The position numbers and the translations under genes were made by a program. Below are positions 29,541-62,526 of a stretch of 64,000 nucleotides of DNA, one piece after another. The DNA comes from an uncultured Bacteroidales bacterium. Its GTDB lineage: Bacteria; Bacteroidota; Bacteroidia; Bacteroidales; PUMT01. The notes under the pieces were generated by a model. The model saw only the letters and a program-made list of their open reading frames with translations. It made no database searches and had not been told where the DNA came from. The stretch's first letter is position 1, and each line of letters opens with the position of its first letter. The stretch covers positions 70,524-134,523 of the forward strand of contig CAYQXY010000001.1 in assembly GCA_964421595.1 (NCBI GenBank), read 5' to 3'.

Positions 29541-29625
29541 CCGAATATAGTGTTGTTATCATGTTTAATATAAGTAAAACAATATCCATGTCACGTGGTT
29601 GCCACGGATCGATCACCCATGGATT
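29541..29625 (-). promoter_or_regulatory. Copy (b) of the upstream cassette, inside the 125-nt actC-actD spacer
   Basis: In gene sense it reads TCCATGGGTGATCGATCCGTGGCAACCACGTGACATGGATATTGTTTTACTTATATTAAACATGATAACAACACTATATTCGG-ATG. Confidence 0.55.
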
Positions 29626-29665
29626 ATTAGCCTCTTTTTGTATGCCCCGGTTCGTGAGTGATTCA

Positions 29666-47975: not shown

Positions 47976-49395
47976 CCTCTCCCCTCTCACGCATTGTCCT
48001 CAGCAGGAGTACTTCAAAGTTTTCACCGGGTGAGGGTGCCGGCGACATAAGCAGTGTCCCGTCACGGTCAATAAGGTAATAGCCCGGAAACATCCTGATA
48101 TCATATTCCTTAAGTATAGATGGCTGGTTGCCGTAGAATAAAAAATCCCAGTCATAATCATACTTGCTTAAAAAATCAAGCATAGAATCATAACTATCGT
48201 CAATAAAAATTGTAACCAGCTTTAGGTAGGGCTTATGGTTAACGATCATCCGGCTCAGGAGATCATACTCTGAAAGACAGCTATAGCTGGCAGCAGTACA
48301 AAAATTCAGATATACATAGTAGCCATGATAATCTGATAGTGATACAAGTTCCCCCCTTGAATCCAGAAGTTCAAACGCAGGGGGCCTGAAACCTTTGAGC
48401 AAACGTGTGACTTTTTCCCTGATATGTCCGGCTATAAGTTCATGCTCGGCATATATTGTTGTAGCTGCCAGAGAATCAAGCACTACCAGCAGGGCGGATC
48501 TTGAAAAGTCAGAGCCATAGAATGAGTCATGCAGGCCTTTCAACAAAACCATTTCAAGTAACCGTCCTCCCCCGAGAACCGGATCAGTCTGCAAAGTATT
48601 TTTGAGTGAGCTCAGGCTTCTTTTCTTGTTTATGTCTTCAAATATCCTGCTACCTGACGGAGTCCTGGAAAAAAATTGAAAATATTTATTATAAACCTGG
48701 TTGAAAAGTTCCATATACGAAACATTTTCATAAAGAACCGGATCATTAAGAAAGTAATTGTCTGAGAGGAGCTTTGCAGAGTGTTGCTGGGAGATGATAC
48801 CGAAAAGGGCCATCTTATACCTCTTGTAATCATCGAAATAGTAATTGGTACTTGTACTGAATTCCATATCAAACTCGTTGATTATGGAATCAAACAGTTG
48901 CTGATCGCGGTTTACCGTAAGTCTGATCAAAGGTTCGCCGAAAAGCGGTTCATACATATTATCAAACCTGCTAATCAGGGTATTTATGCATGAATCATCT
49001 TTATTGAGGACTGCAATGTGGGTGGGAGTGCCTTCAAAGTATGGATTCAGTCTCTCCCATGGAGTTTTGTTGGTTTTTCCGGGAAGCATAACAACATAAT
49101 CTTCTCCTGATTCAACATACATATAAGTATAATTGGTTCCGATATGGGAAAAGATGTACTGAATATTTGTCCCGGTCAGAAAGTCAACTGAAAACTCATC
49201 ATTCGTGTCAACACTGAATCTGAAAATCTCCTTCTCTGTTCGGGTAATATGATCAGTATATGCATAAAATATTATCTCTTCACCGGCGTACCCGGGAGCC
49301 CGGCCTTTAAGGCTGACTGTATCGGTACTGTCAGTACCTGCAACCGACCCGGCACAAATCAGCATAAAATACAGAATACTTATTGATCGTATCAT
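47968..49395 (-). CDS. Secreted protein with a C-terminal thioredoxin-like (TlpA/AhpC-TSA) fold and a non-canonical Cys motif
   Basis: 475 aa with a signal peptide. The C-terminal FELLDSRGELVSLSDYHGYYVYLNFCTAASYSC...MFPGYYLIDRDG resembles TlpA-type redoxins, but CxxC is replaced by CTAASYSC. Confidence 0.5.
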   Translation of the reverse strand: MIRSISILYFMLICAGSVAGTDSTDTVSLKGRAPGYAGEEIIFYAYTDHITRTEKEIFRFSVDTNDEFSVDFLTGTNIQYIFSHIGTNYTYMYVESGEDYVVMLPGKTNKTPWERLNPYFEGTPTHIAVLNKDDSCINTLISRFDNMYEPLFGEPLIRLTVNRDQQLFDSIINEFDMEFSTSTNYYFDDYKRYKMALFGIISQQHSAKLLSDNYFLNDPVLYENVSYMELFNQVYNKYFQFFSRTPSGSRIFEDINKKRSLSSLKNTLQTDPVLGGGRLLEMVLLKGLHDSFYGSDFSRSALLVVLDSLAATTIYAEHELIAGHIREKVTRLLKGFRPPAFELLDSRGELVSLSDYHGYYVYLNFCTAASYSCLSEYDLLSRMIVNHKPYLKLVTIFIDDSYDSMLDFLSKYDYDWDFLFYGNQPSILKEYDIRMFPGYYLIDRDGTLLMSPAPSPGENFEVLLLRTMRERGEVK

Positions 49396-49399
49396 TTTA

Positions 49400-49873
49400 T
49401 CAGAGTCTGAATTCCGTCAATTTAACACCACCTGGCACGAATCTGGATGCATCACCTCCATGCCTGACAATATCGCGAACTATGGTAGAATTGATGGGTG
49501 TGTGTTCAGGGCTTGTCAGCATAAATACTGATTCAATATTGTTATCCATAGCTTTATTTACATGAGCAATTGCCCTTTCAAATTCAAAATCGGCAGCAGT
49601 ACGCAGTCCGCGTAATATAAATGAAGCATTTTTCTCGCGGCAGAAATCAACGGTTAATCCACTGAACCAGGCAACTTCAACCGCTGGCTCATTCTGAAAC
49701 ACATTTCCTATCCACTCAAGTCTTTTTTCCAGTGGAAAAAATCCTTTTTTATTTGAATTGTAGCCAACTGCAATGATTATTTTATCAAAAAAGGAAAGGG
49801 CCCTGAGAACTACAGATTCATGACCAATCGTAAAAGGGTCAAATGAGCCGGGGAAAACAGCAGTTTTTTGCAT
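49400..49873 (-). CDS. coaD: Phosphopantetheine adenylyltransferase
   Basis: 157 aa with FPGSFDPFTIGHESVV (T/HxGH) and a family-typical body. Confidence 0.9.
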   Translation of the reverse strand: MQKTAVFPGSFDPFTIGHESVVLRALSFFDKIIIAVGYNSNKKGFFPLEKRLEWIGNVFQNEPAVEVAWFSGLTVDFCREKNASFILRGLRTAADFEFERAIAHVNKAMDNNIESVFMLTSPEHTPINSTIVRDIVRHGGDASRFVPGGVKLTEFRL

Positions 49874-49920
49874 TGTGCGATAATTGTTTTATATAATTAC
49901 ATTCCGGAATTCCTGAGTTG

Positions 49921-50033
49921 CAAATGTAAATGAATTTCCCATCAACTGAAAATCAATCAGAGATCAGGATATTGCATGGGTAATCGACCTTCAGGTCAAA
50001 TATTTTTATCCGAAATCACACGAAAACGGATAA
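49921..50033 (+). repeat. Copy 1 of a ~100-nt paralogous intergenic unit (17-codon ORF plus hairpins); also carries the coaD -7 box on the other strand
   Basis: It is nearly identical to 61396-61508. The ATG at 49930 opens MNFPSTENQSEIRILHG*. It has a GACCTTCAGGTC palindrome and the hairpin TTATCCG(N14)CGGATAA at 50006-50033. The reverse complement of 49921-49928 is TACATTTG. Confidence 0.6.
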
Positions 50034-50071
50034 AGAAACTTTATTGTAAAGCAAAGCGGTTCCTCCTGTAA

Positions 50072-50117
50072 GGCAAAATTTTGTATTTTTCAGACAAAAT
50101 TTTGCCTTCTTGTTTTT
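50072..50117 (+). terminator. Plus-strand intrinsic terminator with no annotated plus-strand gene upstream
   Basis: An 11-bp stem, GGCAAAATTTT / AAAATTTTGCC, is followed by TTCTTGTTTTTT on the plus strand. Confidence 0.5.
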
Positions 50118-50146
50118 TACAGGAGAAACATATACAAAAGCTGTTT

Positions 50147-50172
50147 AAAAAAGACGCCGGGGAATTCCAGCG
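50147..50172 (-). terminator. Intrinsic terminator for the 50191-50730 gene
   Basis: On the minus strand the stem CGCUGG/CCGGCG is followed by UCUUUUUU. On the plus strand this appears as AAAAAAGACGCCGGGGAATTCCAGCG. Confidence 0.5.
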
Positions 50173-50190
50173 CAAGCAAAAAAACAGGAA

Positions 50191-50730
50191 TTAGCGGCTA
50201 TCTGTCACCAGGACTACGCTGCCAAATACAATATTAATCACTATATCAAGGTGAGGCAGGTCCGGGTCAAAACCTTCCGATGAATAATACCCCTTGCCAA
50301 TAACAGGTGAGTTCCTGCCCGGCATTTTAACACTTGCAAAAACAGCATCAACGTTAATGTTTACAGGAACATCGGGTGGAAGGTATACAGTGCAGCCTGA
50401 GAATATACTGTTTATATTCAGTTTTCTTTTTTCCCCGCTCAGCTGCAGATCTCCAAGACTGAACCTGCTTTCAGAAAAAATAAGCTGATAGGACGGATGA
50501 AGTTCATTGCTTTCAATTTTTGCAGATGCAAAGATAAACTCATTGTCTTCTGATTCCAAAGGCCAGAGCATGAAATTTCCAAACATTATTTTCAGTCCCA
50601 GTAGTATGAAAAACAGTCCGGCCAATATTTTCATAACCGGGAAATCGATATTGAATATCACTCTTATTAACAATGTGAATCCGATAATAATGAGGAATAT
50701 ACCCCAAAATGCAAAATTGTCTATTTGCAT
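50191..50730 (-). CDS. Hypothetical membrane protein (two N-terminal TM helices plus a beta-rich C-terminal domain)
   Basis: 179 aa. I recognise no motif. Coding is supported by ORF length and by its own terminator. Confidence 0.45.
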   Translation of the reverse strand: MQIDNFAFWGIFLIIIGFTLLIRVIFNIDFPVMKILAGLFFILLGLKIMFGNFMLWPLESEDNEFIFASAKIESNELHPSYQLIFSESRFSLGDLQLSGEKRKLNINSIFSGCTVYLPPDVPVNINVDAVFASVKMPGRNSPVIGKGYYSSEGFDPDLPHLDIVINIVFGSVVLVTDSR

Positions 50731-50799
50731 TTGACAAGCTTTAGTTATTAGTTATCTGTTACGGGATAAAAAATCCCATTCTGCATATATGCAGGAAAA

Positions 50800-53268
50800 T
50801 CAGTTTTCCATTCCGACAGGCAATGATCCGCTTACTTTTTCTTTAAGCAATGCATTATCCAGTACGTCTAATATAGTCCTCACATAATGAAAAGTGAGTC
50901 CCTTAATATATACCTCTTTGATCTTGGCCATGTCTTTCCTGTTATCCTCAGACAATATGACATGTGAAATCCTGGCCCGCTTTGCAGCAAGTATCTTTTC
51001 CTTGATCCCGCCAACAGGCAAAACACGTCCCCTTAATGTTATCTCTCCCGTCATCGCAATTCCTTTCCTCACCCGTCGTCTTGTAAAGGCAGATGCCATA
51101 GATGTAACCATTGTAATACCAGCAGAGGGTCCGTCTTTGGGAATTGCACCTTCAGGTACATGTATGTGAACATTCATCTTTTCAAACACCTCAGGGTTGA
51201 TATCCAGATAGGCTGAATGTGCCTTCAGGTATTCAAGTGCCAGTTGTGCCGATTCTTTCATTACCTCTCCGATATTTCCGGTAATTGTCAGGTTGCCTTT
51301 CCCCCTGCTCAGACTTGTCTCAACAAACAATATTTCACCCCCTGCAGGAGTGACTGCAAGACCTGTTACCACCCCTGCAAACTCATTACCCTGATATATA
51401 TCCCTGCTATACTCGGGAGGCCCCAGGATTTCATTAACCATGCCCAGGTTCACCTTTTTCTCAAATGATTCACCAAATGCCTGCCTTTTTGCGAGGCCCC
51501 TTACCATCTTGGCAATTTTCTTATCAAGTTCCCTTACCCCTGATTCACGGGTGTGGTTTTCAACAACAGCCTCGAGTACTTTTTTCGAAAAAACTGCAGA
51601 ATCAAGCTGGAGACCGTGATTTATCAATTGCTTGGGCACAAGGTGCCTTCTTGCAATCTCTATCTTCTCTTCAACTATATAACCGTGTACATTAATCATT
51701 TCCATCCTGTCCCTGAGTGCCGGATGGATAGTGCTTACGGTATTGGCAGTAGCAATGAACAATACCTTTGACAGGTCGTAATCGAGCTCAAGATAATTAT
51801 CATGGAAAGCAAAGTTCTGTTCCGGGTCCAGCACCTCGAGCAATGCAGAAGCAGGATCGCCATGAGCATCCCTTCCTACCTTGTCAATCTCATCCAGAAT
51901 AAAAACAGGATTCGAAGATTTTATTTTCTTCATGTTTTGCAGTATCCTTCCCGGCATCGCTCCAACATAAGTTTTGCGGTGGCCCCTGATCTCTGATTCA
52001 TCATGAAGGCCTCCAAGTGACATTCGGATATATTTCCTTCCAATCGCACCGGCAACAGATTTTCCGAGAGATGTCTTTCCTACTCCTGGAGGTCCTATCA
52101 GGCAGATAATAGGTGATTTCATATCTCCTTTAAGCTTGAGTACAGCAAGGTGCTCAAGTATTCTCTCTTTAACTGTATCAAGACCGAAATGATCACGGTC
52201 AAGTATCTTACGAGCCCTGTTCAGGTCGAAATTATCTCTGGTAAACTCTCCCCAGGGCAGCTCAAGCATCATATGAACATAGTTCACCTGAACTGAATAT
52301 TCACCTGAAGCAGGATTTAGTCTCTGGAGCCTGGTAAGTTCCTTTTCAAATGCTTCACCTACCTCCTTTGACCATTTCTTTTTGGAACCCAGTTCCCGCA
52401 TTTCAGCGATCTCCTTTTCAACAGGATTTCCTCCCAGTTCATTCTGAATGGTTTTGATCTGCTGATTTAGTAAGTATTCTCTTTGCTGCTGGTCGAGTTC
52501 GGTTTTCACTTTAGACTGTATATCCTTCTTGAGCTCCAGCAACTGGACTTCTTTACTCAGGAACTCCAGCAGTATCCCTGCCCGTTTATTAAGCTCATCA
52601 GTTTCAAGAAGTTTCTGCTTTGACCGAATGTCCACATCAGAATTTGAACAGATAAAATTTACCAGGAAGGTAGAACTCTCAATATTCTTAACAGCAAAGG
52701 ATGCTTCCGGTGGTATATTGGATGACAGCTTTATTATCCTGAGAGACAGATCTTTCAGCGACCCTATCAGTGCCTGAAACTGATTCCCCTTCTTTTTCGG
52801 TAGAATGTCTTCCATACTTCTGACTTTGCCTGTCAGATATGGTTCTTCTGAAACAAGTTCAACTATCTCAAATCGCTTTTTCCCCTGGATTATAACTGAG
52901 GTTGCACCATCAGGCATTTCAAGGATCTTGAGAATCTGGGCAACGGTACCGATTTTATAGAGATCATCAAGCTGAGGGTCATCCATCTCCATATCCTTCT
53001 GGGCAACTGCCCCTACAATCTTATTCCCTTTATATGCTTCGCGTATCAGTTTTATCGACTTTTCCCTTCCAACAGTTATGGGAATAATAACGCCGGGGAA
53101 AAGCACGGTATTCCTGAGAGGAAGCAGTGGCAGGATATCGGGGACTTCCGTCTTGTTTAGCAATTCCTCATCTTCATCTGTGATCAGGGTTATATAATCA
53201 GATTCTTCATCAATCGGACTTCCGTCCATAAGGTCTGACCAGACAATATCTTTATTTTTTTTTCTCAT
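50800..53268 (-). CDS. lon: ATP-dependent Lon protease (endopeptidase La)
   Basis: It has Walker A GPPGVGKTS and the catalytic region PKDGPSAGITM. I place the start at ATG 53268 (MRKKNKDI...) rather than at the TTG at 53301. Confidence 0.95.
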   Translation of the reverse strand: MRKKNKDIVWSDLMDGSPIDEESDYITLITDEDEELLNKTEVPDILPLLPLRNTVLFPGVIIPITVGREKSIKLIREAYKGNKIVGAVAQKDMEMDDPQLDDLYKIGTVAQILKILEMPDGATSVIIQGKKRFEIVELVSEEPYLTGKVRSMEDILPKKKGNQFQALIGSLKDLSLRIIKLSSNIPPEASFAVKNIESSTFLVNFICSNSDVDIRSKQKLLETDELNKRAGILLEFLSKEVQLLELKKDIQSKVKTELDQQQREYLLNQQIKTIQNELGGNPVEKEIAEMRELGSKKKWSKEVGEAFEKELTRLQRLNPASGEYSVQVNYVHMMLELPWGEFTRDNFDLNRARKILDRDHFGLDTVKERILEHLAVLKLKGDMKSPIICLIGPPGVGKTSLGKSVAGAIGRKYIRMSLGGLHDESEIRGHRKTYVGAMPGRILQNMKKIKSSNPVFILDEIDKVGRDAHGDPASALLEVLDPEQNFAFHDNYLELDYDLSKVLFIATANTVSTIHPALRDRMEMINVHGYIVEEKIEIARRHLVPKQLINHGLQLDSAVFSKKVLEAVVENHTRESGVRELDKKIAKMVRGLAKRQAFGESFEKKVNLGMVNEILGPPEYSRDIYQGNEFAGVVTGLAVTPAGGEILFVETSLSRGKGNLTITGNIGEVMKESAQLALEYLKAHSAYLDINPEVFEKMNVHIHVPEGAIPKDGPSAGITMVTSMASAFTRRRVRKGIAMTGEITLRGRVLPVGGIKEKILAAKRARISHVILSEDNRKDMAKIKEVYIKGLTFHYVRTILDVLDNALLKEKVSGSLPVGMEN

Positions 53269-53450
53269 AATGTGATATACTATGACATGGAGGCAAGACA
53301 ATATGTCATCTCACAAACGCTCCGGAACAATTTACCCATGCATGGCAAGTCTTGTGCCAATTAGACTGAAGTGTATATTTATTAACAATTTTATTTAATT
53401 TAAGTTCGTATGGTGCTGAAGCTTATACTTAACCGGCTTTCGCATAATAT

Positions 53451-53485
53451 AAAAAAACCCTGCATATACTTAGGCAGGGTTTTTA
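53451..53485. terminator. Bidirectional intrinsic terminator downstream of rpmE2
   Basis: The sequence AAAAAAACCCTGC-atatacttag-GCAGGGTTTTT has runs flanking the stem on both sides. Confidence 0.65.
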
Positions 53486-53502
53486 TTAGTTTTAAAAGCC
53501 GT

Positions 53503-53766
53503 TTATTTCTTCTTGTCCATATGCTTTTTATACCTGTTCATGAATTTGTCGACACGGCCTGCAGTATCAACAAGCTTCATCTTGCCTGTATAAAATGGAT
53601 GTGACGTATTGGAGATTTCAAGTTTATAAAGAGGGTACTCCTTACCATCTTCCAGCGTAATGGTTTCTTTAGTGGCAGCAGTAGAACGTGAAATAAAATA
53701 ATTTTCGTTCGACATATCTTTAAATACCACAAGACGGTAATTCTCCGGATGAATGTCTTTTTTCAT
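53503..53766 (-). CDS. rpmE2: 50S ribosomal protein L31, type B
   Basis: 87 aa from the internal ATG: [17 protein letters not shown]...HPFYTGK. There is no CxxC zinc motif. The 169-aa ORF in the track is an artefactual 5' extension. Confidence 0.85.
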
Positions 53767-54092
53767 ATCAAATATTTTTCTCGGACTATATTTCTTTAAC
53801 TTACAATTTAGTAATCGGATTGCAAAGATAACTCTTGTAATGAAATATGCAAAACATTTTAAGTCATAAGTATAATATTTTATATTATAACTTTTTATTA
53901 TGCTGTGAAACAGGCGAAAAACAAAATACCTCTGGTTGAAATTCACCTCCTCCCCGGGTGATTTAACCGGACAAATTGGTGCTATTATATTTACTGACAG
54001 AAAGTAACACATCCATATGACATGGTCGCCGGTGATGAATTACCCATGCCTTGTTCATTTCTGCTTTTTTATATACATGGTTCGGGGGAGAC

Positions 54093-55559
54093 TCATTTCA
54101 ATTCAAACAATTCAGTCAACGCTTCCGGGTTTAACCCTCCAAAGTTATTGTGAACAAATTCATTCTTACGAAGTACATGGCTGTAACCCTTACTTAATAT
54201 ATCAATGTTTTCAACTACCTCCCTGATTGAATCAATTATGTATAAAGCCTCACCGTCAGTTGTTGTCGGATGAACCGAAAGCCTTACCCAGCCAGGTTTG
54301 GCCGAAAGGTCACCGTGATTTATCATATCGGTAATCTCCTGTGATTTCTCGTGAGTAACCTCAAGCAGGAAATGGCCATAAGTTCCTGCACAGGCACAAC
54401 CTCCGCGAACCTGAATGCCATATTTGTCATTCAGCAATTTCACGAAAAGGTTATAATGAATACCCGGATGGTAAAAGGAAAAAACTGCAAGCCGCGATTC
54501 AATATTGTCGGCGAGAATAACAATGCCTTCGATCGACCGAAGTCCTGAAAATATTATTTTTATCAATTCAGCCTCTCTTTGACTGATAAATGTTGTGTTC
54601 ATGTTGTTTTTCAGCTCAATAGCCAGGGCTGTGCGTATTGCCTGTAAAAACCCAGGGGTGCCGCCGTCTTCACGCACTTCGATATTGTCTACATATTTAT
54701 ATTTTCCCCATGGGTTTGTCCAGTCAACTGTCCCGCCTCCGGAGTCATCGGGAATCTCGCTGTTATAGAGGCTCACATCAAATATCAGAACTCCCGAAGA
54801 ACCAGGCCCTCCAAGAAACTTATGGGGGGAGAAATATATTGCATCAAGCTTCTCCAGCGGGTCTTCCGGGTGCATATCAATATCAACATATGGTGCAGAT
54901 GCAGCAAAATCGACAAAACAAACACCACCAAACTCGTGCATTATCCGGGCAAGTTCATAGTAAGGTGTGGTTATTCCGGTAACATTGGAACAAGCCGTAA
55001 ATGCTCCGATCTTAAACTTCCTGTCACTGTATTTCTCAAGCTGAACCCTGAGAGACTCCGGGTCAACCATAAGATTTTCATCCGGTTCAATAATTACCAC
55101 ATCAGCAATTGTCTCATACCATGAGGTATGGTTGGAGTGATGCTCCATGTGTGTAATAAATACTACGGGGCGTTCTATTTCTCTGAGACAGGTCTTGTTG
55201 TAAAGTTTTCCGCATCCCTTCAAACCGAGAATACGCTGAAGTTTATTCACAACTGAAGTCATACCACTCCCAGCAGTGATAATTATATCATCTGGTCCGG
55301 CATTAACATGCTGCTTAATCATTTGCTGTGCAAGGTGGTAGCAATGTGTTGTATGACATCCGGTGTAGCTTGTTTCCGTATGGGTATTACCAACAAACGG
55401 ACCGAAAACAGAAACAATTTTATCTTCAACCGGTCTGTACAACCTTCCGCTGGCCACCCAGTCGGCATAGACAATTTTACGGGTTCCGAAAGGCGATTCA
55501 AATGTTGAATCAATCCCAATGATGTTCTGGCGGAATTTAGAAAAATAGTTTTCAAGCAT
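54093..55559 (-). CDS. Class-V-fold PLP-dependent aminotransferase (cysteine-desulfurase-like)
   Basis: The PLP lysine context is YFSPHKFLGGPGSSGVL. I place the start at ATG 55559 (MLENYFSKF...). Alternative starts are at 55607 and 55634. Confidence 0.7.
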   Translation of the reverse strand: MLENYFSKFRQNIIGIDSTFESPFGTRKIVYADWVASGRLYRPVEDKIVSVFGPFVGNTHTETSYTGCHTTHCYHLAQQMIKQHVNAGPDDIIITAGSGMTSVVNKLQRILGLKGCGKLYNKTCLREIERPVVFITHMEHHSNHTSWYETIADVVIIEPDENLMVDPESLRVQLEKYSDRKFKIGAFTACSNVTGITTPYYELARIMHEFGGVCFVDFAASAPYVDIDMHPEDPLEKLDAIYFSPHKFLGGPGSSGVLIFDVSLYNSEIPDDSGGGTVDWTNPWGKYKYVDNIEVREDGGTPGFLQAIRTALAIELKNNMNTTFISQREAELIKIIFSGLRSIEGIVILADNIESRLAVFSFYHPGIHYNLFVKLLNDKYGIQVRGGCACAGTYGHFLLEVTHEKSQEITDMINHGDLSAKPGWVRLSVHPTTTDGEALYIIDSIREVVENIDILSKGYSHVLRKNEFVHNNFGGLNPEALTELFELK

Positions 55560-55706
55560 TTGATAGTGGATCTTATTTAATAACCTTTGCAGCCTGAACG
55601 AGGGCATGTAATTGTTTAATGCCCGGCGGAACAAAGGTAAATGACATTTTGGAGTAAATACATAACAAATAGCATGTTTTAATTCATTGGCAGGTCAATA
55701 ATATTG

Positions 55707-57110
55707 TTAATGCAGCCTGATGATGCGATGATCGATCAGCATGAATATGACAATAATAAGGAAGGTATAAAGGAAGTAAACTCCAAGCGGAATATACTGC
55801 TGTGGACGGATCTTAAGTTTAAAGTAGTTATATGCAACAAGCACCATTTTCTCAACCAGGAAAACTATTGCCGTTGCCACTGCAACTCCCACGATTCCGT
55901 AAAACCTGATCAGGAAAAGACTTAGAGAGACATTAAGTATTATTTCAACCACAGACGCAACCAGAACGATTCTGGTTTTCTTAAGTCCAATGAGAATTGT
56001 CTGCGGAAAAACAAGCCGGCTGATAATCAGAAGAAGATATACCATAAAGACATCGGCACTCCGGGAAAATGTTTCATTGAACATAGCTATATAGAGCACT
56101 TTGCTAAAGAAAAGCAGTGCGATTGAAACCGGAAACAGTACATGCATCAGTTTTGCTGACTTTTCTTTAATTGTCGCCAGTGCTGTATGCAATTTATCTC
56201 TCGTTGAGAATTCAGGCAGCATGGCATTGCTCAGTCCGTTAGCCATTAATATAACAAGTGGAAACTCCTTTGCGCCAAACCTGAAAAGAGCAAAATTCGC
56301 AGCATCATAAGAGGCAGTTATAATTATTCCGTCAATATATTGAGCCGAACCACTAAGAAGTGAACTTAATATCAGGGGCAATCCAAGAGACATATGCTCC
56401 TTCATGAAAGCAAATGATATTTTCAGCCGGGCATGCCTTTTTAATAAAATTCCAAGCCAGATCAATCTGACTACAGATATTGCAATTAATCCCCAGATGG
56501 CAAATTCTACAGGATACCCTGAAACAACCGGTACGGTAACGATAACCAACTGTACGGCAAAGGTTAAAAATCCATAGACTATCAGTTCTGCAGATTTGTT
56601 CTTGAGAAGATAAATGTATTCGATAAGGTGACCCGGATTACTGACCAGAATATAGACGAAAATCAGGTTCATAAAGGAAATATCCTTTACACCTTCGAAC
56701 AGGTGGAACGCTCTCTGAAAAAGAAGACAGAAAATATATGCCAGGACGCTGAATGCCGATAGCAATACAAAAGCATTGAAAAGTTCAGGAGATTTTGATT
56801 TTTTATTTACTGCAAGCACCCTGAAGGTTTTGTTGCTGTTATAAAGCGGCAACAATGACTGGATAAGTCCGTTTACCCAAAAAAAACTTACAGCGCTGGC
56901 AATGAAAAGTGAAAGCTCGTAATATCCTATTTCTTCGACTGAAACCTGACTCTTTGTAAAAATGATACTTATTAACAGGAATGTGGTAAACCTCAAAATC
57001 TGAATAGTTTGCAAACTACCAATATTGGATATCTTATTAACCAGGCTCAAGATTTTAAGGATTGATTTTGCAAGCAAATATAAAACAATAAATAAAGACA
57101 AAACAGTCAA
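55707..57110 (-). CDS. MOP-superfamily oligosaccharide or polysaccharide flippase (Wzx-like)
   Basis: 467 aa with about 12-14 TM helices and flippase-like topology. The start is non-ATG (TTG) because there is no early ATG. Confidence 0.55.
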   Translation of the reverse strand: MTVLSLFIVLYLLAKSILKILSLVNKISNIGSLQTIQILRFTTFLLISIIFTKSQVSVEEIGYYELSLFIASAVSFFWVNGLIQSLLPLYNSNKTFRVLAVNKKSKSPELFNAFVLLSAFSVLAYIFCLLFQRAFHLFEGVKDISFMNLIFVYILVSNPGHLIEYIYLLKNKSAELIVYGFLTFAVQLVIVTVPVVSGYPVEFAIWGLIAISVVRLIWLGILLKRHARLKISFAFMKEHMSLGLPLILSSLLSGSAQYIDGIIITASYDAANFALFRFGAKEFPLVILMANGLSNAMLPEFSTRDKLHTALATIKEKSAKLMHVLFPVSIALLFFSKVLYIAMFNETFSRSADVFMVYLLLIISRLVFPQTILIGLKKTRIVLVASVVEIILNVSLSLFLIRFYGIVGVAVATAIVFLVEKMVLVAYNYFKLKIRPQQYIPLGVYFLYTFLIIVIFMLIDHRIIRLH

Positions 57111-57154
57111 TGAAATTTTAAGTTTTCAGATTGCGTATCTTCAAAAGAAATATT

Positions 57155-57162
57155 TATATTTG
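57155..57162 (+). promoter_or_regulatory. -7 box TATATTTG for tRNA-His
   Basis: It matches TAnnTTTG and ends about 10 nt before the tRNA 5' end. Confidence 0.55.
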
Positions 57163-57172
57163 CAGCATAAAT

Positions 57173-57250
57173 GGTGGTCGTAGCTCAGTTGGTTAGAGCG
57201 TCAGATTGTGGTTCTGAAAGTCGCCGGTTCGAATCCGGTCTTCCACCCCA
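57173..57250 (+). tRNA. tRNA-His (anticodon GTG) with genome-encoded G-1 and CCA
   Basis: Hand fold: G-1, acceptor GTGGTCG, D arm GCTC-AGTTGGTTA-GAGC, anticodon arm TCAGA-TTGTGGT-TCTGA, variable AAGTC, T arm GCCGG-TTCGAAT-CCGGT, 3' acceptor CTTCCAC, C73, CCA. Positions 5:68 (U-U) and 6:67 (C-U) do not pair. Confidence 0.8.
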
Positions 57251-57262
57251 CCATTAACCATC

Positions 57263-57302
57263 AAAAAAGGCAATTAACCTCACGGAAAATTGCCTTTTTT
57301 AT
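57263..57302. terminator. Bidirectional intrinsic terminator between tRNA-His and the fasciclin gene
   Basis: The sequence is AAAAAAGGCAATT-aacctcacggaa-AATTGCCTTTTTT. Confidence 0.7.
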
Positions 57303-57348
57303 TTATCTCCTGCTGTTGCAGTTATATATTACTCAGCTGTCACCGGTA

Positions 57349-57855
57349 TTACTCAGGCAGAACTACACCTTCAATTACATGAATAATTCCATTGGTACCT
57401 TTTAGATCGGTGGCCGTAACAAATGCAGTATTGCCTGATTCATCAGTCAGTTTAACTTTCCCCATGTCAAGAGAGGCAGTTAGTTTTCCGCCGCTGACAG
57501 TAGTTAATTCTGCCTTGCCATTACCATCGCTGATTGCTGACATTACCGCAGCCGCATCAAGATTACCGCTGTATACATGATAAGTCAGTATTTCAGCGAG
57601 CCGGGCCTTATTTTCAGGTTTCAGCAATTCCTCAACAGTACCTGCGGGCAATTTATCAAATGCCGCATTGGTTGGAGCAAACACCGTAAAAGGGCCACTG
57701 CCTTTAAGAGTTTCTACCAGACCAGCTGCTTTTACGGCAGCTACCAGAGTTGTATGGTCAGTCGATCCTGCTGCAATATCAACAACATCTTTTCCCTGAC
57801 TGAAAGCACTCATTGTTGTAATGAATGCAATTAAAATAATTGATAATTTTCTCAT
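57349..57855 (-). CDS. Fasciclin (FAS1) domain protein, secreted
   Basis: 168 aa with a signal peptide. FAS1 motifs are FTVFAPTNAAFDKLP and GIIHVIEGVVLP. Confidence 0.85.
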   Translation of the reverse strand: MRKLSIILIAFITTMSAFSQGKDVVDIAAGSTDHTTLVAAVKAAGLVETLKGSGPFTVFAPTNAAFDKLPAGTVEELLKPENKARLAEILTYHVYSGNLDAAAVMSAISDGNGKAELTTVSGGKLTASLDMGKVKLTDESGNTAFVTATDLKGTNGIIHVIEGVVLPE

Positions 57856-58049
57856 AATATTAATTGTTTTTTGTTTAACGTTTTTAATTACTCCTTAAAC
57901 ATCACAAAAATTGATTTGTTCATTATATATAAAAACAAATAACATATTTTAATACATACAGTAAATAAAACAGCTGTAAAATGCTGTTTTTATGCCTTTT
58001 ACACTTACATTAACTTGAGAGAAAATTTTCAACCAAATAGTTTTTCTAA

Positions 58050-58057
58050 TAATTTTG
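58050..58057 (+). promoter_or_regulatory. Candidate -7 box TAATTTTG about 250 nt upstream of the 58311 gene
   Basis: It is the only exact TAnnTTTG match I saw in the 455-nt spacer on the plus strand. Confidence 0.3.
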
Positions 58058-58310
58058 CAATATAGAGTTTCTACCTAAAGATTTAACAAAATACAATTCA
58101 ACTGAAATCTTCGAACCATTTCCACCGGAAGAAATCCGATCAAACCCATGATTACCTCCTCCTGTAGCAGTTAATGATCAACATCAAAATATGCCAATGT
58201 TGAAATTGACTCAGCTTACCGGAATTGGCTCACCTGAACGGGATAAACATAACCAATAGTTTGTTGTTACTTCTTTAAAACCTATCTGTTATTTTTAAAA
58301 CCTTAATAGT

Positions 58311-58823
58311 ATGGCAAAAACAAAGAAGCAAAAAAAAGCAGCCAACGTCATGACTGACGTTGCGATTAAAGATCTGATGAGCGAATATCTGGATATTTGT
58401 AACCGTGCAATTGATAAAAATGCCGGTAATTTCTGGTATGAGAAGGCAATACAACTTAATAACGCCATCTGGGAAAAGCCCTATTTCCGTGTTTCAGTCT
58501 ACGATAAGGACCCTGACAAAACACTGGAAGAGTTTATTGTTCATTTTAGCACCTATAATAACAGGCTAAGCCTTTCCCATTCAGTTAATGAAGTTGAGTT
58601 TTCCTGCAAATTCCCGTTAAGTTATATTGAAGATGTACTGACAAGGCCTGACTTCTACATTCAAAATCCATTGATGCTTGACTGGAAATGGTTTACTGAC
58701 AGGGTAAGTACCGGATCACAGACGTTTTTTCAAAATAACAAATATCTTTCAATTGGTCTTGGTCTGATAACAGGAGCCTTGTTGACTCTATTCCTGGTTC
58801 GCAGGTCATCAAAAAGGGAATGA
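58311..58823 (+). CDS. Hypothetical C-terminally membrane-anchored protein, translationally coupled to rtcB
   Basis: 170 aa with a basic N-terminus (MAKTKKQKKAAN), no motif I recognise and a C-terminal TM helix (LSIGLGLITGALLTLFLV). Its stop overlaps the rtcB start (ATGA at 58820-58823). Confidence 0.55.
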   Translation: MAKTKKQKKAANVMTDVAIKDLMSEYLDICNRAIDKNAGNFWYEKAIQLNNAIWEKPYFRVSVYDKDPDKTLEEFIVHFSTYNNRLSLSHSVNEVEFSCKFPLSYIEDVLTRPDFYIQNPLMLDWKWFTDRVSTGSQTFFQNNKYLSIGLGLITGALLTLFLVRRSSKRE

Positions 58824-59980
58824 TCAGGACAATTACAACAGAAAGGATTCCAATCAAGCTATGGCTTGATGACATAGAAGAAGGGGCTCTGCAGCAGGCC
58901 AGGGATATTGCAAACCTGCCGTTTTCCGCCTGTCATGTTGCCATTATGCCCGATGCTCACCAGGGTTTTGGAATGCCAATTGGCGGGGTCCTTGCCACAA
59001 GGGGATTTGTAATACCAAATGCAGTGGGAGTAGATATAGGCTGCGGTATGAGTGCCCTGAGAACTTCGCTTACGCATGCGTCTCATTCCGAACTTGTGAA
59101 AATTACCGAAGAGATTAAAAGGATTATTCCGTCAGGATTCAGACATCACAAGAAACCTGTAAGTGAAGGATTACTGCCTTCCATTAGCAATAAGCTCCCT
59201 GTTGTGGAACGAGAATCCGGCAATTCAGCTTTTCAGCTGGGAACACTCGGCGGAGGGAATCATTTTATCGAACTGCAGAAAGGGTCTGACGGATATATAT
59301 GGATAATGGTCCATTCCGGCAGCAGGAACCTTGGCAAGCAGGTGGCCGATCATTATTTCAGGGAAGCGGTGAAGCTCAATGAAAAGGAGTGGAAAAAAAA
59401 CAAAATTCCCCGCGAGCTTGCCTCCCTCCCGGTCGATTCAGACATCGGTCAATTATACCTGAACGAGATGCAGTATTGTATCAACTTCGCCTTTGCCAGC
59501 AGAAGAAAGATGATAGATGTAATCTCAGAAATCATTACCGGACACTTCAGAAATATCGACTTTAATGATTTCATCAATATTGCCCACAATTTTGCAAATA
59601 CAGAAACCCATTTCGGCGAGAGGCTCATAATTCACCGGAAGGGGGCGACATCGGCCAAAAAAAATGAGCGATGCATTATTCCCGGATCGCAGGGAACAAG
59701 CAGCTTTATTGCAACAGGAAAAGGTAACCCGGAAAGTTTCGAAAGCTGTTCACACGGAGCCGGAAGGGTAATGGGAAGGCGACAGGCCCGGAAACAGCTT
59801 GACCTTAAAAGGGAACGAAGACTTCTTGACGATAAAGGAATCATCCATAGCCTGTTAAGGCAAAACGACCTTGATGAGGCGACATCAGCATATAAGGATA
59901 TTAACCTGGTGATGAAGCTCCAGGAAGACCTGGTTGACCTTGATACTGAACTGCAGCCGCTGGCGGTAGTAAAGGGATGA
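58820..59980 (+). CDS. rtcB: RtcB-family RNA 3'-phosphate ligase (short form)
   Basis: 386 aa with GVDIGCGM, GGGNHFIE, HSGSRNLG, HRKGAT and SCSHGAGR, which carry the RtcB metal and GMP-histidine motifs. Confidence 0.85.
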   Translation: MIRTITTERIPIKLWLDDIEEGALQQARDIANLPFSACHVAIMPDAHQGFGMPIGGVLATRGFVIPNAVGVDIGCGMSALRTSLTHASHSELVKITEEIKRIIPSGFRHHKKPVSEGLLPSISNKLPVVERESGNSAFQLGTLGGGNHFIELQKGSDGYIWIMVHSGSRNLGKQVADHYFREAVKLNEKEWKKNKIPRELASLPVDSDIGQLYLNEMQYCINFAFASRRKMIDVISEIITGHFRNIDFNDFINIAHNFANTETHFGERLIIHRKGATSAKKNERCIIPGSQGTSSFIATGKGNPESFESCSHGAGRVMGRRQARKQLDLKRERRLLDDKGIIHSLLRQNDLDEATSAYKDINLVMKLQEDLVDLDTELQPLAVVKG

Positions 59981-60122
59981 TGATCAAGAATAAAGAGAAT
60001 CAGAAATTAGCAGGGAAAAAACTTCCCGGCATAAATGCAGCCTGAAAAGCTGAAAGTGATCCGGGAAATTTAATTATGATTATCCAGAATAATAATTCAC
60101 CTCACTCTTTGTGTAAAGAATG

Positions 60123-61322
60123 TTATTTTGCAGGTAAAAATTGCTGGGTAATTTTGCCGGACTTTTTCTCTTTAAGAATTCTTTTTACAGATCCGTCGGG
60201 CATTACCTCCTCCTTTACAAGTAAATGATCGGCATCAAAATCTTCAAATGCAGAAATAGACTCAGCCTTTTCCATTCCTCTCCATACATCAAGGTTTACC
60301 GGCTCCCATTTTTTTGATTTGACTGAACGGTAACATGCGTCCATTATTTCATTCACCACATACCCGTCATAAAAAGTTTCTGTGCATGGCTCACCTTTTT
60401 CCAAGGCATCAAACATATCGGTAAACATATTTGTATAGCCCAGTTCATGTATCTCGTCGCTAACAGGGAAAACCCACCCCTGGTTACTTTCGGCTTTCTC
60501 TGCCACATAACCCTTCTTCCCTCCGGCGGTAAACATCTCAATTCCTGTACGCAGAAAATTGTTGACCCATATTGTTCCCTCGGTACCCATTACCTCATCC
60601 CTGAGATCCATCCCACCACGGAACGACCAGCTTACTTCAAACTGCGCCATGGCACCTGAATCATATCTGACAAAACCAACTGCATTATCTTCAGCATCGA
60701 TGGGTTTTACAAGAGTATCAGCCCAGCAGATAACCTCAACAGGACGCACATCTTTTCCGATATATGACCTTGAAATCTCTATGCAGTGGCAGCCCATATC
60801 CAGAAGTACTCCTCCCCCCGAAACTTCGCGGTTCCAGAACCAGTCAGAATGAGGACCTGGATGTGTCTCCCTGGACCTGGCCCAGATGACGCTACCTATT
60901 GCACCGTTTTTTACAGATTTAACAGATGTAAGGGTTTTGGGCGTATATACCAGATCTTCCATATATCCGTTAAAAAGTCCCGCTTTCTCCACCGCATCGA
61001 GCATGATTTTTGCTTCAGAGGCATTTCTTCCAAGGGGCTTGGTACACAGTACTGCTTTTTTGGCTTCAACAGCCATCAATACAGCTTCCAGGTGCAGATT
61101 GTTAGGCAGGGCAACGACAACAACATCTACCTCAGGATTGTTGACAGCTTTGTACATATCGGTTGTCCACTCAGGTATACCATATTTTTTTGCAAAGGTG
61201 CTTCCCCTGGTTTCATCACGGGAATAAATAACCTGTACCTTATCTCTGCTGCGTTGTGCATGAATGGATTGAGTGTAGAAATCGCCTATAAATCCGGCGC
61301 CGAGCATAGCGATTTTAGCCAT
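60123..61322 (-). CDS. Gfo/Idh/MocA-family NAD(P)-dependent oxidoreductase
   Basis: 399 aa with an N-terminal Rossmann motif ([13 protein letters not shown]) and a family-typical EKP-like region (CTKPL). Confidence 0.8.
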
Positions 61323-61395
61323 AATTTTAAAGTTTTGGTTAACAGAAATAATTCAAGAAACTGTGTATTTCAGGAATAGAAATGGAATCTGTTAA

Positions 61396-61508
61396 CAAAT
61401 GTACATGAATTTCCCATCAACTGAAAATTCAACAGGGATAAAGACATTGCATGGGTAATCGACCTTCAGGTCAAATTTTTTTATCTGAAATTACACACAG
61501 ACAGATAA
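61396..61508 (+). repeat. Copy 2 of the paralogous intergenic unit; also carries the oxidoreductase -7 box on the other strand
   Basis: The ATG at 61405 opens MNFPSTENSTGIKTLHG*. It has the same GACCTTCAGGTC palindrome. The hairpin TTATCTG(N14)CAGATAA at 61481-61508 has a compensatory change relative to copy 1. The reverse complement of 61396-61403 is TACATTTG. Confidence 0.6.
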
Positions 61509-61541
61509 AAAAACAGGAGAATATCATCAAATTTCGCTAAT

Positions 61542-61586
61542 AAAAAAAAGCCGGGATCCCATTTAGAGATCCAGGCCTGTTTTTTG
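61542..61586. terminator. Bidirectional intrinsic terminator downstream of rpoD
   Basis: The sequence is AAAAAAAA-GCCGGGATC-ccatttaga-GATCCAGGC-CTGTTTTTT, with one mismatch in the stem. Confidence 0.6.
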
Positions 61587-61627
61587 GTTAATCCTCATTA
61601 TTCAAACCTCGATAGAATAATCCAGGC

Positions 61628-62488
61628 TTAACCGAGGTACATCCTTAAGAGTTTGTTCTTTGATTTATGCCGGAGCCTTTTCAAAGCTTTTTCCTTGATC
61701 TGCCTTGTACGTTCCTTGGTAAGACCCAGTTCTTCACCGATAGCCTCAAGCGACATTTCCTGCCGGCCAAGTCCGAAATAACATTCAAGCACATTTCGCT
61801 CTTTGTCAGTCAGTATACTCAGGGTACGGGTTATTTCTTTTCTCAGCGAGTCAACCATCAACTGTGAGTCGGCTATGGGAGAATCCTTGTTCTCCATTAC
61901 ATCAAGCAATGAATTGTCCTCCCCGTCAACAAACGGAGCATCGAAGGACATTGGACGGCCATTAAGCTTTAAGGTGCCGTCAACCTTCTCCTTGGTCATT
62001 TCAAGTTTCTCTGCAAGCTCCTCGGCTGAAGGATCCCTTTCATTTTCCTGCTCAAACCTGGAACTGATCTTATGTATCTTGCCCAATGAACCTACCTGGT
62101 TGAGAGGAAGTCTAACAACTCTTGCCTGTTCGGAGATCGCCTGTAAAATTGATTGTCTTATCCACCAGACAGCATAGGAAATAAATTTAAATCCCTTGGT
62201 CTCATCAAATTTAGTAGCTGCCTTTATCAGACCCAGGTTACCCTCATTAATCAGATCAGGCAGACTGAGCCCCTGGAACTGATACTGTTTGGCAACAGAT
62301 ACAACAAATCGTAAATTAGCCTTTACCATTTTCTCAAGTGCTGCCTGATCGCCGTTTCTAATCCGCTGGGCCAGTTCGACCTCCATTTCAGGGGAAATCA
62401 GATCTTCTTTACCTATCTCCTGAAGATACTTTTCAATAGAATTTGAATCACGGTTGGTGATCGATTTTGTTATTTTTAACTGCCTCAT
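61628..62488 (-). CDS. rpoD: Primary RNA polymerase sigma factor (short Bacteroidota SigA/RpoD)
   Basis: 286 aa. Region 2 is [11 protein letters not shown]...[18 protein letters not shown]...[13 protein letters not shown]. Region 4 is [20 protein letters not shown]. Confidence 0.9.
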
Positions 62489-62526
62489 ATATAATATTTT
62501 GTGTTTTATTTATAACCCGGTAACAA

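Follow-up and report, generated by a model that had tools for sequence, protein, structure and literature searches.

Two copies of a repeat lie in the window, the 64,000-nucleotide (nt) stretch of contig CAYQXY010000001.1 from an uncultured Bacteroidales bacterium that was analysed here: copy 1 at positions 49921–50125, next to coaD, and copy 2 at 61396–61519, next to the gene of a Gfo/Idh/MocA oxidoreductase. The repeat is lineage-specific, non-coding, modular and interspersed. It is probably a non-autonomous modular repeat, similar in kind to the BOX and Correia elements, which occupies −7 promoter boxes and supplies the adjacent gene with its core promoter.

The gap-free alignment of positions 49921–50039 with 61396–61514 spans 119 nt and shows 87% identity; beyond these 119 nt the flanks of copies 1 and 2 are unrelated. 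An earlier note on this DNA, made from the letters alone, had seen the two stretches to match at about nine positions in ten with the divergence concentrated centrally, and most of the differences between the copies do lie in a central patch. The same note had taken the stretches for a two-copy paralogue, with copy 1 ending at about 50021, and neither part of this description holds. Further copies, for which it had suggested a genome-wide search, are numerous: in the source genome (G000; 4.85 Mb, 88 contigs, 98.9% complete) a sequence search returned 47 matches and an nhmmer profile 53 hits at about 40 loci. Copy 2 corresponds to positions 1–119 of the nhmmer model, while copy 1 continues to 50125, a length of 204 nt. 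It thereby includes the 'orphan terminator' of the note, whose 13-bp hairpin and T-run (50072–50116) are present as claimed but are not separate from the repeat, being part of its module B.

The repeat was found in all 15 genomes of the same genus and in all three of a second genus of the family, and was not found in one further genus of that family, nor in the 21 genomes searched that represent other families of the order. The congeners are soda-lake-sediment metagenome-assembled genomes labelled 'Bacteroidales bacterium CSSed...'; their proteins show ∼80% identity and most spacers cannot be aligned. At least 30 copies are present in G014, all of the form box+H+B (see below), and at least 44 in G010, many of them at contig ends. 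Many contigs of congeners and of same-species assemblies end inside the repeat, among them L077, L079, L082, L084, L085, L093 and L097 (G010) and the Logan contigs L119 and L121, which break about 28 nt into it. Because the repeat breaks short-read assemblies, all copy numbers are lower bounds. Rfam 15 gave no match at either copy (window 49000–62500, E ≤ 1), and the conserved core of B is absent from the viral contigs scanned.

In order, the repeat consists of a terminal box CAAATGTACATGA (also written AAATGTACATGA), a 64-nt unit U in zero to two tandem copies, a hairpin H and a nested hairpin B, and optional modules C and D can intervene between H and B. On its left side the family has a sharp edge at the terminal box, in all copies. 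Alignment of the three longest copies gives a full element of 204 nt, the other full copies being C49:1881-2085 and C17:12097-12301. U is single in the window copies, doubled at C19:57401, C20:61561 and C4:140909, and missing in the H-B copies. The latter seemed at first to be made of H and B only; they also start with the terminal box and are just without U, and this form, box+H+B, is the commonest and most widespread. B is a repeated module attached to H or to other modules, many copies are without B (copy 2, for example) or without H, and head-to-tail arrangement is frequent (e.g., C12:110353-110789). The features of the two window copies are as follows.

49921–49933, minus strand: terminal box of copy 1, plus CAAATGTAAATGA = minus TCATTTACATTTG, with a perfect TAnnTTTG at 49928–49921.
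49934–49997, plus strand: unit U of copy 1, with stem S1 (49938–49945 with 49972–49980) around a variable 26-nt loop (49946–49971).
49986–49997, plus strand: GACC-TTCA-GGTC hairpin or palindrome of copy 1, the stem kept and the 4-nt centre varying.
49998–50041, plus strand: module H of copy 1, an A/T-extended hairpin with the core TTATCCG ... CGGATAA.
50042–50125, plus strand: module B of copy 1, beginning with an unpaired conserved block AAAGC(A/G)AAGCGGTTC (50048–50062) and closing with CAGGAG (50120–50125), the right end of the copy.
50063–50071 with 50117–50125, plus strand: outer stem of B in copy 1, CTCCTGTAA with TTACAGGAG.
50072–50106, plus strand: inner hairpin of B in copy 1, 13 bp, followed by a T-rich tract at 50107–50116.
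50126–50132, minus strand: remnant of the native coaD −7 box, plus AAACATA = minus TATGTTT.
50154–50173, minus strand: intrinsic terminator of the LiaF-like gene (50191–50730), called by terminator scan, outside the repeat boundary; the earlier note had rightly given this upstream minus-strand neighbour a terminator of its own.
61396–61408, minus strand: terminal box of copy 2, plus CAAATGTACATGA = minus TCATGTACATTTG.
61409–61472, plus strand: unit U of copy 2, with the palindrome at 61461–61472.
61473–61513, plus strand: hairpin H of copy 2, TTATCTG ... CAGATAA.
61514–61519, plus strand: what remains of B in copy 2, CAGGAG directly after H, the rest being deleted.
61520–61526, minus strand: remnant of the native −7-like box of the oxidoreductase gene, plus AATATCA = minus TGATATT.

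Promoters read by the Bacteroidota sigma-A factor have a −7 box, TAnnTTTG, 20–70 nt upstream of the start codon and a weaker −33 element, TTG, ∼19–21 nt upstream of that box. On the opposite strand the left end of the element reads TCATGTACATTTG, which ends in a perfect TAnnTTTG, the box itself being TACATTTG. The earlier note had already placed the −7 box of coaD within the repeat, and CAAATGTA, the reverse complement of TACATTTG, indeed forms the first 8 nt of it. This remark proved central: the copies are 'duplicated promoter DNA', an outcome that the note had listed among those that would refute its reading. In the source genome TAnnTTTG is enriched on the sense strand 20–70 nt upstream of start codons. 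Looking at both strands of the element, a perfect TAnnTTTG is conserved across copies at one position only, and this is the gene-facing end.

The repeat occupies intergenic DNA on the promoter side of genes, and its polarity is fixed, as counted with crude gene calls based on open reading frames (ORFs). Among the source-genome copies that start at model position 1–2, the neighbouring gene reads away from the box end in 17 of 18; in congeners the gene faces away at 44 copies and toward at 9. Copy 1 lies upstream of minus-strand coaD (49400–49873), its box ending 47 nt before the ATG (49873), and copy 2 upstream of the minus-strand oxidoreductase gene (60123–61322), with 73 nt between box and ATG (61322). 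At many housekeeping genes the spacer from box to ATG is just 3–30 nt, so that no other promoter can fit between them. The distances from element box to start codon are typical of the source genome. The genes served are unrelated and include, besides coaD and the oxidoreductase, tmk (thymidylate kinase), panB, lplA, yebC, hemA and those for a cyclophilin (PPIase), a rhomboid protease, an NlpC/P60 protein and an epimerase. Copies with a spoiled box (TGTTCATTT) are found at gene starts in 2 of 14 cases against 27 of 39 for all others (Fisher p = 5e-4, a value that overstates the difference, the copies being related).

The empty sites of both window copies could be reconstructed from congeners. 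Most congeners have the native coaD box ∼49–53 nt before the ATG (e.g., ...agccttttaTGTATGTTTGcagcag...). Past the distal end of copy 1 the sequence reads ...cagcttttgTATATGTTT and then the C of the element, which is the native box with its upstream context, minus the final G; base 49921 corresponds to this native G. When the flanks are joined, with the right end at 50125 and no extra base, ...cagcttttgtatatgttt^gcaactc... aligns with ...agccttttatgtatgtttgcagcag... of congeners. At the oxidoreductase gene the corresponding position in congeners holds a native TAATATTG, after which comes a homologous TTAGCAGAT; the window has TTAACAGAT. Here the joined flanks ...gaaatttgatgatatt^gttaacagat... 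are colinear with ...gaatttagctaatattgttagcagat... in G015, G011, G008 and G014; likewise ...gaaatttgaTGATATT^Gttaacagat... stands against ...gaatttagcTAATATTGttagcagat... in the four congeners, which read TAATATT-G where the flank of copy 2 has TGATATT. In both window copies the native box is thus split after its seventh base, TAnnTTT^G. Read in gene sense the element is 5'-CTCCTGT...TCATGTACATTT-3', ending in TACATTT, and its last seven bases together with the native G make a perfect TACATTTG anew, as far from the start codon as the native box had been.

At yebC the element box stands at the place of the native box of 11 congeners, and at the NlpC/P60 gene at that of several congeners; a homologous 5' untranslated region follows in both cases. 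These comparisons show that the native box is split at two loci and that at two others the element box takes an equivalent position. Among the 40 non-tandem copies the flank following ...ACAGGAG starts with AAAnnTA, the box without its G as read on the plus strand, in 26, against a background of 0.5%. The two variable bases are more diverse at this distal box than at the gene-proximal one. The left and right boxes of one copy have a mean identity of 8.90/12 compared with 8.52/12 after shuffling (p about 2e-4), an excess that comes partly from tandem units. We infer that −7 boxes are the preferred target.

The panB site, which like lplA limits how far the empty-site result can be extended to other loci, is occupied by different module arrays in many congeners and by 'solo' AAAATTCATGTAGGTTTG boxes in the rest. 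We note that repeat-free promoters reading AAAATTCATGTAnnTTTG are present upstream of panB in L133, L137, L138 and L142 (G013, G014, G006 and G007) and upstream of coaD in L103 and L113 (G004 and G013). This sequence matches the last 17 nt of the element and not the general promoter context of the genome; such promoters may be footprints ('solo boxes') left by elements that were excised or deleted, or the ancestral sequence from which the element end arose.

The stems of the repeat are conserved by compensatory change, as the earlier note had anticipated when it proposed looking for covariation in relatives and pointed to a hairpin differing by a compensatory pair between the two window copies (TTATCCG/CGGATAA in one, TTATCTG/CAGATAA in the other). 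In 48 distinct H-B sequences from several genomes, and for the stems H, B outer and B inner, 90.2% of cells are paired, versus 42–56% when the 3' partner is slid by 1–3 columns. Thirteen pairs have changed on both sides, and none of 500 shuffles reaches the observed value on any measure. The H stem (helix 1) has 15 pairs, five of them with changes on both sides, and helices 2 and 3, which belong to module B, are 89.6% and 96.9% paired. Whole-stem swaps of H occur among congeners (ATCCG/CGGAT, ATCTG/CAGAT, TGCGT/ACGCA). The outer stem of B covaries (CTCCTGT/ACAGGAG, ATCCTGT/ACAGGAT, CTTCTGT/ACAGAAG), as does the base of its inner stem (GTC/GAC, GGC/GCC, GTT/AAC, GAT/ATC), and in S1 the pairs 18-60 and 19-59 alternate between CG, TA and AT. 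Minimum-free-energy folding recovers S1 and the palindrome stem; RNAalifold on the H-B alignment recovered the inner B hairpin only. Copy 1 folds far better than shuffled sequences on both strands (z = −4.7 and, for the gene strand, −5.4), and, counted on the plus strand, most wobble pairs are G.T, 85 versus 36 A.C overall and 42 versus 9 in B.

On its plus strand module B has the appearance of a terminator, a 13-bp stem followed by CTTCTTGTTTTTT. The terminator scan made no call here, the 9-nt loop of B being above the loop limit of the scan. At copy 1 there is no upstream plus-strand gene, and the inner hairpin and its T-run are enclosed by the covarying outer stem; because this stem surrounds both of these parts, what looked like a 'terminator' forms the interior of a longer, nested hairpin.

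Both arms of the B inner stem contain, in most copies, AAATTTTG, which is one mismatch from TAnnTTTG (model positions 156 and 176; window 50076–50083 and 50097–50104, plus strand). Transcription from the one in the 3' arm would leave the element at its right end, and plus-strand genes lie 48–400 nt to the right of about half of the copies. Of the optional modules, C is a TCCTCAT...ATGAGGA hairpin placed after H, and D (AGGTTCCC...ATTATGCATGGGTTG...TTAATAAA) is placed before B; composites with C and D reach about 475 nt (C4:88219-87744, C12:110483-110789, C19:57401-57283 and C21:3425-3684). The copy at C23:7632 runs straight into a different small repeat (...CCATGTAACGCGGTCGCCACAGATGGATCACCCATGGATTATT..., C23:~7540-7500), which also occurs at window 29541–29665, and two repeat families thus cluster.

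The earlier note had drawn attention to an ATG...TAA frame of 17 codons, and this frame is present in both window copies (49930–49983 in copy 1; MNFPSTENQSEIRILHG and MNFPSTENSTGIKTLHG). To the proposal that it marks a small plus-strand gene for a micropeptide we give almost no credence, even with the frame kept in both window copies and intact (ATG, frame and stop) in about nine of the 18 U-bearing copies of the source genome. In the others it is broken in one of four ways: internal stops occur in C4:83629, C28 and C5, the start codon is lost in C5 and C23, 1-nt deletions shift the frame in C26 and C9, and the stop is lost in C32, C2 and C20. Amino acids change freely in the variable patch, and the segment is missing altogether from the box+H+B copies, the main form of the repeat. 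The frame also coincides with a covarying stem-loop, since the 'divergent patch' of the earlier note is the S1 loop (49946–49971 in copy 1), closed by the stem CCCATCAA/TTGcATGGG. Many copies without a conserved ORF are what the note itself had set against its micropeptide gene. With start, frame and stop not conserved, comparison of the copies refutes a protein-coding small ORF and indicates that the 17-codon frame is a chance frame in a stem-loop unit, not a gene.

On the reading that we prefer, the element-borne box would now drive the neighbouring gene (coaD, the oxidoreductase, tmk, panB, yebC, hemA and others), in which case insertion would be neutral or rewiring, not lethal. Promoter use would account for the polarity, the tight spacing to the ATG and the tandem arrays, which may have grown by insertion into the box that the element carries. 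The hairpins may be maintained for propagation of the element by an enzyme, or B as an intrinsic terminator pointing away from the served gene, or both; where a copy lies behind a gene (the 9 of 53 'toward' copies) B may serve as its terminator. We advance tentatively, as a possibility that may well prove wrong, the more specific proposal of a mobile element without terminal inverted repeats or transposase that homes into TAnnTTT^G and rebuilds a consensus box with its own end. Dozens of housekeeping genes would in this way have their core promoter replaced, and the element would spread through recombination that uses the box as a core site, or through an RNA or single-stranded DNA intermediate folded from the plus strand.

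Other explanations were weighed against promoter supply. One is that the repeat is a multicopy small RNA (sRNA) gene, with a plus-strand transcript of ∼120–200 nt divergent from the neighbour in which H is followed by AAAGCGAAGCGGTTCC as a single-stranded seed block and by B as Rho-independent terminator. The layout of 5' hairpin, conserved unpaired block and terminator hairpin with T-run is classic for an sRNA, its stems are backed by covariation, and the plus-strand bias of the wobble pairs keeps alive either such an RNA or a single-stranded DNA or RNA intermediate. However, the element has no conserved perfect TAnnTTTG on the plus strand, only a one-mismatch AAnnTTTG inside the B stem, and the left flank, where a plus-strand promoter would be required, is not conserved. 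The enclosure of the T-run by a covarying outer stem, the loss of B (copy 2) or H from many copies and the lack of an Rfam family also count against an sRNA gene, which would leave unexplained why the element ends at the −7 box position of its neighbour; we consider it unlikely. Quite unlikely, in our view, is that the element forms the transcribed 5' leader of the downstream gene. It would then be a cis-acting RNA of the gene strand, made from the native promoter upstream of it, and its orientation would be fixed because the opposite one would put a terminator before the gene. A native box and its upstream context do survive distal to the element, the gene strand folds strongly, and selection against sense-oriented terminators alone would yield a polarity bias. 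Against this, the surviving distal box is without the invariant G (TAnnTTT-C or -A) in all copies and the wobble pairs become A.C mismatches on the gene strand; neither the conservation of a perfect box right at the element's border nor the scarcity of broken-box copies at gene starts is explained.

Binding of a transcription factor that co-regulates the ∼40 genes, through the palindrome GACCTTCAGGTC, through the block AAAGCGAAGCGGTTCC or through both, is a further option, and here the earlier note had thought of a shared operator region. The palindrome it described is present in both copies (49986–49997 and 61461–61472), perfect over 12 bp and ∼60 bp upstream of the −7 box; its half-sites are conserved, its centre varies, and the position upstream of promoters is constant. 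The downstream genes are functionally unrelated housekeeping genes, which makes the operator of a regulon unlikely; moreover, identity of 80–90% spans the whole 130–200 nt and not just a binding site, the palindrome-bearing unit is missing from most copies and from all of the G014 copies listed, and orthologous genes of congeners are without the element. We therefore hold a shared operator to be very improbable. Several other candidates were rejected: a riboswitch or leader because the downstream genes are unrelated, a CRISPR-like or attC array because there is no regular spacer or cassette context, and end fragments of insertion sequences (IS) because no copy in the source genome flanks a transposase gene.

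A number of observations weigh against the reading we prefer, in which the repeat occupies −7 boxes and supplies promoters. The −33 region of the element is weak, with TTTTC or TTTC instead of TTG at the expected spacing, and that the adjacent gene is transcribed from the element-borne box is something we infer from sequence. Judging from the wobble pairs, it is the strand left untranscribed by the proposed promoter whose folding is favoured, a bias for which the promoter reading gives no account. Empty sites could be reconstructed exactly at two loci only (coaD and the oxidoreductase), most spacers not being alignable between congeners with ∼80% protein identity. Among the distal boxes the variants of the element itself (CA and TA) are over-represented, so that some of these boxes are decayed tandem units and not native ones; at lplA the empty sites of congeners are without a promoter box, and thus not every insertion was into a box. 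There is no clean target duplication, the flanking box-like direct repeats being similar and not identical, and there are no terminal inverted repeats, since neither of the ends CAAATGTACATGA... and ...TTTTTTACAGGAG is the other in inverted form. A mobilising enzyme was not found: PF01797 (Y1 transposase) has no match in the source genome, while control genomes respond. Recent movement was not observed either; a search for presence/absence polymorphism within the species found the 317-nt coaD spacer retained in all three informative contigs, so that copy 1 is present in all of these assemblies.

Comparison with known systems places the repeat near several of them. Putative mobile promoters (PMPs; Matus-Garcia, Nijveen and van Passel 2012) are sequences with at least 80% identity over at least 50 nt upstream of non-paralogous genes, and the screen for them covered positions −150 to −50, mostly missing the core box (PMC3575422). 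The window copies are of this kind: the 119 nt shared by the regions before coaD and before the Gfo/Idh/MocA oxidoreductase gene are 87% identical, and the other downstream genes are likewise unrelated. Like PMPs, the repeat is non-coding, lies upstream of non-homologous genes, carries putative promoter elements and has no IS association. PMPs have no defined anatomy, whereas the present repeat has sharp ends, modules, covarying hairpins and a junction inside the −7 box.

Correia elements have 26-bp terminal inverted repeats, a TA target duplication and sigma-70 −35/−10 boxes. As with these, the repeat is small, non-autonomous, high in copy number and gene-adjacent, it would be structured when transcribed, and a repeat end would contribute or create promoter elements for the neighbouring gene; it differs in having no inverted termini, in its polarity, in targeting or replacing TAnnTTTG and in its head-to-tail arrays. 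Correia elements (CREE/NEMIS) of Neisseria have been cited as repeats that generate functional promoters (PMC3575422, PMC3049150). The BOX repeats of Streptococcus pneumoniae (boxA-boxB(n)-boxC; PMC3049150) offer a parallel in design, with fixed end modules, zero to two internal stem-loop modules and predicted RNA stems. U is likewise absent, single or doubled, although no homology is claimed. Module B resembles SPRITE, a terminator-like repeat, and pneumococcal repeats are enriched downstream of coding sequences (PMC3049150). In contrast to BOX and SPRITE, the present repeat lies directly upstream of gene starts in one polarity, and it has no sequence relationship to them and comes from another phylum.

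REP elements are usually located 3' of genes. The repeat shares with REP, BIME and REPIN sequences the dispersed extragenic hairpins, the mosaic arrays and the strand-asymmetric stems, and differs from REP in its units, which are 130–204 nt long, contain four different stems and lie on the promoter side. REP sequences are short (20–40 bp) imperfect palindromes with a GTAG or CGTC tag (PMC3733652). No palindrome tagged in this way is visible in the consensus and no Y1/RAYT gene is present in the 98.9%-complete genome, as the PF01797 result shows; we therefore do not assign the repeat to a REP/BIME-RAYT system. [quoted passage not shown] The BrickBuilt MITE of Porphyromonas gingivalis resembles it as a non-coding composite repeat of Bacteroidales with internal tandem units; it is described as having inverted repeats that enclose a minisatellite (PMC4596501), and by that description it is set apart from the present repeat, which has no inverted termini.

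Two further observations concern the lon region between the copies. On the minus strand at window 53454–53543 there is a weak Rfam match to isrJ (28.4 bits against a gathering score of 37, E = 0.077); most of it is a hairpin resembling a terminator, located downstream of the lon gene region, and the match is probably due to chance. Lon protease is a single gene of 809–833 amino acids in the window and in GCA_050330815.1; in L116 (JGI 3300076001, same species), compared over window 50800–53301, it is called as two products of 659 and 153 amino acids, a split that reflects either a frameshift or an assembly error in the L116 contig.

Small repeats that carry promoters, such as Correia elements, ERIC and IS ends, are a known route of regulatory rewiring. 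To our knowledge almost all examples come from Proteobacteria and Firmicutes, with sigma-70-type boxes, and the present family would exemplify a promoter-carrying repeat for the unusual promoter of the Bacteroidota. For annotation, its units should be masked as repeats and not called as small ORFs, sRNAs or orphan terminators. The replacement would be precise to a single base, with the native −7 box split and replaced before the essential genes coaD, tmk, panB, hemA and yebC. If the element box is active, ∼40 genes per genome in this soda-lake lineage of Bacteroidales would share one core promoter, and the family would allow promoter replacement to be studied as a natural experiment, would offer Bacteroidota genetics a ready-made, portable promoter/terminator cassette and would point towards a mechanism of box-specific insertion.

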